From the UHGV virus genome UHGV-1483955: a stretch of DNA of 64,000 nt. One strand, 5' to 3'. The stretch's first letter is position 1. The number at the start of each line of letters is the position of its first letter. Shown here one piece after another: positions 23,733 to 24,542 of this stretch. The notes under the pieces were generated by a model. The model was not told the DNA's origin. It ran no database searches and saw nothing but the letters and a program-made list of their open reading frames with translations. Origin of the DNA: a virus. The translations under genes were made by a program, and so were the position numbers.

Positions 23733-24542
23733 TTATTTGCTAAGAGCAGCGAATAATCGTTCGAAATCGATAGTATCTATAGCACGCGTAAGCGCCGGAA
23801 GTTCAGCCTCAAAGTACCCGTGTCGATCGTAAAAGAAGGGACCGAAGAGCGAGGCATGTTGGATTCTACTTCGCCCCAGCCCGGACACACAGTTAAGCCC
23901 ATTACCGGCTAAAAGGCTAAAAAACTTCTCTGGATTATCGTGGTAAAGCTGGGAATCAATGGTGGCGGTTAACTCTTCCATAGGGAAGCACACCCGCCCT
24001 GTATCCCAGGGATATTTAGTCCGAAGCATAAACATTGCTTTCAGCAATTCACATTGAGCGCGGATCGCGTCCGGTTCATAGCCAGATATGGAGACATAAG
24101 CCACGTCCCTCATTCCTGCGTCATCTTTGAAAGTCACGATAGAAGTAACATCCAGCTCTTTTTCGAAAGAGCAAGCAGCATCTACTGGACGCTGAAGTAA
24201 ATCATTCGACTTAATGCGCTCGAGAATCCCTCCCCACATATCATTTAGATATTCGATATGAGCCAAAACCTTATCAAGACACTCTCGTGTAAACCATTCA
24301 GTATGCCCGCCACCGACGCTTTTCTCCCACGGCGCATTCCAGGGGAAAAAGGTTGCGTGTAAAGCCCGCTCAAGATTAACCATTGCCAAACGTGTACCAC
24401 GATAGACCCGTGAAAGCGCAAAATCGGGACTCACTTGTAGCCCTTTAAACCGTGCCAATGGACCACATGAAATGCCGATTTTAAAAGTATCTCCGTTCTC
24501 TGGCACCAGAACGTAGAGGTAGTGTTGTTTCTCTTCTTGCAT
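23733..24542 (-). CDS. T5orf172 / GIY-YIG-like domain protein (269 aa)
   Basis: N-terminus YLYVLVPENGDTFKIGIS...RFKGLQ...LERALHATFFPW...GGGHTEWF fits the T5orf172 pattern; C-terminal ~150 aa unassigned; own terminator. Confidence 0.55.
   Translation of the reverse strand: MQEEKQHYLYVLVPENGDTFKIGISCGPLARFKGLQVSPDFALSRVYRGTRLAMVNLERALHATFFPWNAPWEKSVGGGHTEWFTRECLDKVLAHIEYLNDMWGGILERIKSNDLLQRPVDAACSFEKELDVTSIVTFKDDAGMRDVAYVSISGYEPDAIRAQCELLKAMFMLRTKYPWDTGRVCFPMEELTATIDSQLYHDNPEKFFSLLAGNGLNCVSGLGRSRIQHASLFGPFFYDRHGYFEAELPALTRAIDTIDFERLFAALSK

Follow-up and report, generated by a model that had tools for sequence, protein, structure and literature searches.

A predicted T5orf172 nuclease gene at the edge of an exchangeable replicon cassette in P1-like phage-plasmids

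The I-TevI and Seg proteins of phage T4 join an N-terminal GIY-YIG-type catalytic domain of ~100 amino acids (aa) to a C-terminal DNA-binding domain, and the genes for the Seg proteins stand free between other genes and bring about marker exclusion or co-conversion. In the vibriophage ICP1, T5orf172 proteins are putative free-standing homing endonucleases found at genetic-exchange boundaries, and their DNA-binding domains are modular and swappable (PMC10448857). One ICP1 nuclease, Odn, combines a T5orf172 nuclease with a RepA-derived domain and cuts the origin of a rival at its iterons, an activity abolished by the substitution E180A (PMC8263062), while CapR is a T5orf172 homing endonuclease turned repressor (PMC10448857). 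Here we analyze a gene of this family in UHGV virus genome UHGV-1483955, studied as one stretch of 64,000 nucleotides (nt; hereafter the window), whose replicon, judged by sequence, is of the ‘p0111’ type of P1-like phage-plasmids, in place of the IncY replicon of P1. The gene, which we call X, is a 269-aa open reading frame (ORF) at window positions 23733–24542 on the minus strand (ATG start, stop codon included), between the replication gene repA and the partition gene parA.

Sequence comparisons indicate that X is part of an exchangeable cassette and is unneeded for replication or partition. Our leading, tentative interpretation is that X is a free-standing nuclease, akin to homing endonucleases or to Odn, that would cut rival P1-like plasmids at specific sites and act through exclusion and/or cassette conversion. 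An Odn-like or homing-like role is favored by the retained motif residues, the predicted winged helix, the position at the cassette edge, and fast evolution with cycles of decay; among the functions proposed in an earlier note on this DNA, ‘exclusion’ of competing P1-like plasmids appears to fit this evidence best.

A gene for a predicted two-domain protein at the boundary of an exchanged replicon

X is a real gene. Its first 117 residues (24192–24542, minus strand) constitute a predicted nuclease domain of the T5orf172 type (GIY-YIG fold), as the earlier note had proposed: Pfam T5orf172 (PF10544) matches residues 8–85 with 26.9 bits (E = 6.9e-6), above the gathering cutoff of 20 bits. MUG113 and Tox-URI2, which we take to be members of the same GIY-YIG clan, give sub-threshold Pfam matches, phrog_681 (‘endonuclease’) matches the N-domain with E = 7e-9, and phrog_2876 (function unknown) matches X across its full length. 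Three residues, Y10, R31, and E82 (within TEWF), correspond to the family-conserved Tyr of beta1, Arg of alpha1, and Glu, and are each at least 90% conserved among 31 homologues; from the effect of E180A in Odn, we infer that they have a catalytic role in X. They belong to a set of 13 family-conserved N-domain residues (Y10, K21, G23, R31, D40, S44, E58, L61, H62, G79, E82, W83, and F84). The remainder of the protein (residues 118–269; 23736–24191, minus strand) is a predicted winged-helix-type domain that is probably DNA-binding. This half had been described as unassigned, and indeed it has no match in Pfam, NCBIfam, or PADLOC; the whole protein likewise has no NCBIfam match and none to a PADLOC-DB 2.0 defence model at E up to 10.

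The domain assignments draw on an AlphaFold2 model of full-length X (mean predicted local distance difference test score, 82), in which a GIY-YIG alpha/beta fold is predicted to be followed by a winged-helix domain. The structures closest to the modeled C-domain are WH1 domains of iteron-binding plasmid initiators, with marginal scores: Foldseek against the PDB returned nothing significant (best E 0.12, template modeling score ≤0.4), and the weak head of its list comprised RctB, Rep WH1, and RepE54. The likeness to Rep WH1 is therefore suggestive but statistically marginal. At the sequence level, BLASTP found no similarity between the C-domain and either the window RepA or P1 RepA, a profile built from five RepA proteins scored a probability of 0.2% in hhalign, Pfam reported no Rep3_N or Rep3_C match in X (T5orf172, MUG113, and Tox-URI2 only), and sequence searches of the PDB with profiles of RepA and X yielded no usable match. 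On the BLASTP and hhalign negatives, we reject the idea that X recently captured a RepA domain in the manner of Odn.

The boundaries of the cassette were delineated by comparison with P1 (NC_005856). Blastn aligned 19565–23666 to P1 at 99.4% identity and 25926–28416 at 96%, with nothing alignable in between; the intervening 2259 bp (23667–25925) replace 1500 bp of P1 that include incA, repA, and the incC iterons, and X lies at the par-side end of this non-homologous cassette. X had earlier been pictured as ‘wedged’ into place, a description that does not hold, since the gene is part of a replaced replicon module rather than a solo insertion. That the corresponding P1 interval lacks such a gene was correctly stated: NC_005856 annotates there only incA, a spacer of ~190 nt without any coding sequence, and the par promoter (Ppar). 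Within this spacer, tblastn detected no relic of X beyond noise (all E above 0.2).

On the par side, P1 homology restarts 67 nt past the X stop codon. Similarly, for two other loci, L002 and L003, which share a backbone, 98.6% identity restarts 63–84 nt past the X stop codon, and X is the final gene of the swapped cassette in every case. The gene has its own intrinsic terminator, as had been noted: GCCCCTGAACGGGGC followed by TTTTTT (23701–23725, minus strand), a G+C-rich hairpin with a T run that starts 7 nt after the stop codon and would insulate the par promoter. The par promoter and ParA operator (23562–23647, minus strand; promoter-like match 23647–23619), common to P1 and located by mapping the P1 annotation through identity, begin 20 nt past the cassette edge. 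X thus stands where it had been reported to stand, between the downstream iterons (24573–24835) and the parA promoter, and it has the attributes of a free-standing gene, i.e., an ORF between repA with its iterons and parA, its own terminator, and two predicted domains.

To evaluate exchange on the par side, we compared 3.9 kb from 41 p0111 and 7 IncY elements. There were no fixed differences between the two types, the fixation index (Fst) was 0.15 in the first 300 nt and ~0 beyond, polymorphisms were common to both types from 300 nt onward, and identical ParA protein alleles occurred across IncY and p0111 elements. This pattern indicates many transfers of the cassette onto the backbone, with breakpoints lying near X, in agreement with the 17 replicon switches inferred on a Salmonella tree (PMC11165635).

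Within the cassette, the gene upstream of X is repA (24835–25719, minus strand), encoding a 294-aa ‘p0111’-type Rep3/RepFIB-like initiator that is 42% identical to P1 RepA and 45–48% identical to RepFIB RepA proteins. Five origin-side iterons spaced by 21–22 bp lie at 25801–25902 (plus strand), and the downstream, incA-like array (24573–24835) occupies the interval between repA and X, with iterons in one orientation at 24577–91, 24607–21, 24639–53, and 24701–15 and in the opposite orientation at 24795–24811 and 24819–35. The iteron consensus TCGCGYATAGTCAAC has 11 matches in the window, all in the replicon, against a chance expectation of 0.22. An iteron-like copy with one mismatch, TCGCTTATAGTCAAC, is found at 25102–25116, within the repA coding sequence and outside both arrays. 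The downstream array stops 35 nt upstream of the X ATG, and across four lineages the last iteron lies 13–40 nt upstream of that codon. Between repA and X, these four lineages display no consensus sigma-70 promoter, and no terminator was found, which makes read-through transcription of X from the repA promoter, itself autoregulated by RepA, the simplest inference. X has the same G+C content as the neighboring genes, and base composition thus gives no hint of a recent foreign origin.

Beyond the cassette, parA (23564–22368) and parB (22351–21350) are encoded on the minus strand on one side, and upfA (26446–26054, minus strand) on the other. The identity to P1 differs between the upfA side (96%) and the par side (99.4%), which suggests that the two cassette flanks have different histories. 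In P1 and in the window, upfA occupies the oriR-side slot, which is variable among P1-like plasmids; for instance, some IncY P1-like plasmids (L062 and L064; 5945–6776) carry two other ORFs by oriR, one of them annotated ‘Gp49 family’.

Long residence of X in the repA–parA slot

We next consider the occurrence of X. Using X with its flanks as a query (1271 bp, matches counted at ≥80% of its length), the region was found in 388 PLSDB plasmids and 12 phage records (SJ46, RCS47, JL22, phi456, and others), and the window RepA type, at ≥99% identity, in 392 plasmids. The agreement of these plasmid counts points to a tight linkage between gene and replicon, and in this collection the p0111 cassette nearly always carries X, intact or disrupted. 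Plasmid copies are at least 90% identical at the protein level (tblastn), with the exception of one unrelated Cupriavidus match. The cluster of full-length X proteins has 1241 members, representing the majority of copies, while a scan of genome representatives returned one X locus and a scan of IMG/VR returned 44, all 91–100% identical.

In hundreds of database records, X is labeled ‘GIY-YIG nuclease family protein’ or hypothetical. Two papers have noted it in passing, and the literature refers to it only as an ‘unknown protein’ (gp57 of JL22) and has never characterized it: in JL22, the IncY repA was described as replaced by a p0111 repA' plus the unknown gene gp57, and repA/upfA is listed as variable region 6 of eight in P1-like elements, the X slot being inside it. 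Two labels look like mis-annotations, namely the MOB-suite typing in PLSDB that calls the p0111 replicon ‘IncHI1B’ (L009–L015), and the name ‘terminase small subunit’ given to X in the phi456 record OR339795.1. New here are the predicted two-domain architecture, a slot conserved in at least four RepA lineages, the difference in evolutionary rate between X and the neighboring genes, the natural null alleles, and the position of X at an exchange boundary.

Homologues were sought among 5.8 billion clustered proteins and 1.84 billion cluster representatives. In these protein searches, the sole diverged full-length homologue was P0004 (44% identity), and the C-terminal half, from about residue 120 onward, had no further homologue. 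The N-domain matches ~65 proteins at 28–43% identity, many of which span 270–300 aa and combine T5orf172 at the N-terminus with an unannotated C-terminal region. We considered whether the X C-domain was common to this class of ~280-aa proteins and rejected it, as these proteins differ among themselves in the C-terminal region and none is related to X there. Three candidates for intermediate alleles (64–82% identity) were discarded: P0008 and P0015 have sequences that look like frameshifted fragments, and P0009, which leaves the X alignment after about residue 50, was treated in the same way.

PF10544 also matches P0004, P0010–P0012, and other homologues, and the genes for P0004 (L002), P0010 (L003/L004), and P0011 (L005) all lie in the repA–parA interval of other P1-like elements. 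These slot homologues adjoin three other RepA types: RepA of L002 is 84% identical to that of the window, RepA of L003 is IncY-like (83% identical to P1 RepA), and RepA of L005, a third type, is 43–48% identical to the others. In PLSDB, no RepA was nearer to that of L002 than the p0111 group. L002 and L003 have one backbone (ParA 100% and ParB 98% identical) and different replicon types, and their X proteins are 29% identical. These two loci (7006–9130 of L002, p0111-like; 6813–9056 of L003, IncY-like) display a second, parallel replicon dimorphism, with an unlike X in each. Between the window and L005, the X proteins are 29% identical, and the terminator and a further ~40 nt of 3' flank can still be aligned; the L005 region (3965–8307) also encodes a 401-aa ParA (57% identity) and a 321-aa ParB, with P0011 in the slot. 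An hhalign comparison of the C-domains of the two groups of X proteins (137 columns, E = 1.9e-4, probability 48%) suggests that they are probably homologous and extremely diverged. The presence of homologues in the same slot of other RepA lineages indicates that X has long resided in the replicon cassette of P1-like elements.

When the repA–parA interval is compared across the P1 family, X is found in many relatives and not in all, without any known structural role. It is missing from the classical E. coli P1 of the IncY type and from six other IncY plasmids with an identical ParA, and the absence of X always goes along with a different replicon. The comparison of P1 (without X) to L003 (with X) is the single one available inside one replicon type, as defined by 83% RepA identity.

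A first alternative is that X serves as cargo for anti-phage defence or exclusion: acting alone, the nuclease would cut the DNA of unrelated incoming phages and so protect the lysogen. T5orf172 is a nuclease domain, the N-domain match to the phrog_681 ‘endonuclease’ agrees with such a role, X evolves fast and is often lost (see below), and more distant N-domain homologues occur in other, unrelated mobile elements, including one prophage-like and one ICE-like (integrative and conjugative element) region. One such homologue, P0013, is chromosomal and lies in a defence-island-like region beside Mrr_cat, WYL/WCX, and Ymh genes (L007, 4783–8983). However, no PADLOC model matches X, and the gene stands alone, accompanied by neither sensor nor partner. 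Its location in four P1-like lineages is confined to the repA-to-parA slot and tied to the replicon, outside the usual P1 cargo hot spots, and a winged helix reading specific DNA would better suit a defined target than generic foreign DNA. The defence cargo suggested in the earlier note thus received no direct support, and we consider this alternative unlikely.

Fast evolution and natural disruption of X

We then evaluated the diversity of X and its neighbors in 33 copies, i.e., 32 unselected IMG/VR loci and the window. For repA, 18 nucleotide alleles encode 2 protein alleles, with a ratio of non-synonymous to synonymous nucleotide diversity (piN/piS) of 0.012; the corresponding values are 24, 2, and 0.002 for parA and 20, 6, and 0.05 for parB. 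X displays 23 nucleotide alleles encoding 21 protein alleles and a piN/piS of 0.32, corresponding to an evolution ~25 times faster than that of repA. The C-terminal domain (0.41) is the more variable half (N-domain, 0.24), and all 13 family-conserved N-domain residues are invariant across the 33 alleles. The same trend is seen at greater distance: the X proteins of the window and L002 are 44% identical overall, 64% in the N-domain and 32% in the C-domain, while identity reaches 84% for RepA and 89% for ParA, and both elements have one and the same iteron consensus.

Disrupted alleles are frequent, with about 8 of the 44 sampled copies affected by at least 3–4 independent disruptions. The reference phage SJ46 (L035, 4001–4810) carries the nonsense allele Q228*, five IMG/VR loci (L039, L040, L042, L043, and L044) carry S112*, and two more copies are truncated or broken. 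The product that would restart from M102 in the S112* allele (P0003, 168 aa) belongs to a protein cluster of 229 members. Separately, the plasmid protein P0005 (ABN773_26325) is a chimera of 78 unrelated N-terminal residues and X residues 105–223, which suggests a rearrangement within X in one plasmid. Overall, X is under purifying selection, dispensable, fast-evolving, and repeatedly lost. The rate contrast and the recurrent disruption together look like the signature of a conflict gene or selfish gene, unlike that of a replication or partition factor.

A second alternative is that X is a domesticated, non-cutting replicon accessory comparable to CapR, which would bind iterons or RepA and thereby tune copy number or handcuffing, or insulate par expression. 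X directly follows the copy-control iterons in four lineages, is probably co-transcribed with repA, and is inherited along with the RepA type; its C-domain is predicted to resemble Rep WH1, a dimerization and DNA-binding module, and a homing endonuclease of this family has become a repressor before (PMC10448857). Yet the motif residues of X are fully conserved, and its nonsense alleles are common in the face of extreme constraint on repA. In addition, the C-domains of the window and L002 have diverged to 32% identity although these elements have the same iteron consensus and RepA proteins 84% identical, and the IncY P1 controls its copy number without X. We therefore regard such an accessory role as rather improbable.

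X might also be a functionless passenger, the decaying relic of an old insertion kept between two essential modules, as the share of disrupted copies (SJ46 included), the sizeable clusters of truncated proteins, and the relaxed constraint compared to neighboring genes would suggest; however, a piN/piS far under 1, the invariance of the 13 conserved residues, an ORF kept intact across four lineages despite divergence to 27–44% identity, and the predominance of full-length copies (cluster of 1241) make this an improbable explanation. Finally, a maintenance factor, the other role put forward in the earlier note, is unlikely, given that the IncY P1 replicates and partitions without X, and that repA and parA hardly vary whereas some 8 of the 44 sampled copies of X are broken or carry nonsense mutations.

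A candidate mechanism and its relation to known T5orf172 systems

The interpretation of X as a nuclease that cuts rival P1-like plasmids at specific sites can be described as a series of steps. X would be expressed by read-through from the repA promoter across the iterons, with a burst upon entry into a cell lacking RepA. Its winged-helix domain would then recognize a defined sequence in a rival, a P1-like plasmid either without the cassette or with a replicon of another type, the target lying at the iterons or at the replicon–par junction, and the nuclease domain would cut the rival at this site. The cut rival would either be lost, resulting in exclusion, or be repaired from the X-bearing element, in which case repair would copy X along with the non-homologous replicon beside it, as far as the point where homology begins again, i.e., replicon-type switching by homing of the whole cassette. 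As a consistency check, the window contains no IncY iterons, so that cutting at IncY iterons would be harmless to the element itself. In a more specific and, in our view, doubtful version, X would make the whole replication and incompatibility module a homing cassette: through a Rep-like winged helix it would cut P1-like plasmids of the other type at or beside their iterons, repair from the X-bearing element would overwrite the replicon of the rival, and the frequent IncY-to-p0111 switching would be driven in this way, with X as a plasmid-borne counterpart of Odn.

Several points weigh against a nuclease directed at rival replicons. X may covary with RepA type simply because the two are physically linked and flanked by homology arms. 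The presence/absence polymorphism of X is confounded with the replicon swap, and we found no two elements that share an E. coli replicon and differ in whether they carry X. A cassette edge just upstream of Ppar would also be expected from selection for intact functional modules, and the P1 spacer holds no remnant of X, no recognizable target, and no relation to the X flanks.

P1-like phage-plasmids are widespread carriers of ESBL (extended-spectrum beta-lactamase) and mcr genes, and we know of no explanation in the literature for their frequent IncY/p0111 replicon switching. Two replicon types switch often on a common backbone in these elements (PMC9603915, PMC11165635), a behavior that X may help explain. 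If X does cut rival replicons or drive their conversion, it would represent a new determinant of plasmid incompatibility and competition, in which homing-endonuclease logic acts on a replication module, with consequences for typing by replicon and for how stable vectors derived from P1 are. Otherwise, X is an accessory gene that is well defined and evolves fast, and it can usefully mark the p0111 cassette.

Among the described systems, CapR of the PLE satellite resembles X in being T5orf172-related and in its sequence-specific DNA binding, which for X is predicted; it is, however, a repressor with a zinc-finger DNA-binding domain, whereas X retains all the conserved motif residues. The I-TevI and Seg proteins have the same order of domains, an N-terminal GIY-YIG-type domain and a C-terminal DNA-binding domain (predicted in X), within a similar total of 220–270 aa. 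X differs from them in belonging to the T5orf172 subfamily, with FKIG instead of YIG as its second motif, in its DNA-binding fold, and in its plasmid-prophage context.

The T5orf172 homing-endonuclease genes of phages like ICP1 and T5 (Barth, Dunham and Seed 2023, PMC10448857) resemble X in several respects. They too have a terminal catalytic domain and a separate DNA-binding region (again a prediction for X), are free-standing between essential conserved genes at an exchange boundary, and display modular, fast-changing non-catalytic domains and degenerate alleles. Unlike these genes, which lie in structural or replication operons of lytic phages, X is situated within the iteron-based plasmid replicon of a phage-plasmid, and what moves with it is an entire replicon. 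Furthermore, 87% of phage T5orf172 homing endonucleases carry CapR, DUF723, or DUF4397 zinc fingers, where X has a predicted winged helix. Homing, putative in X, is largely inferred for the ICP1 genes too.

Odn (Gp88 of ICP1; PMC8263062) differs from X in that its RepA_N domain is N-terminal and 42% identical to the RepA of its target, while the domain of X is C-terminal, weakly Rep WH1-like in the predicted structure, and without sequence similarity to P1-family RepA. Unlike the odn gene, X also adjoins the iterons of its own replicon. Nevertheless, both proteins associate a T5orf172 nuclease domain with a domain of the type by which initiators read iterons, a tentative assignment in the case of X, and both would act in a conflict between two replicons with a sensitivity set by replicon type, as reported for Odn and proposed here for X.
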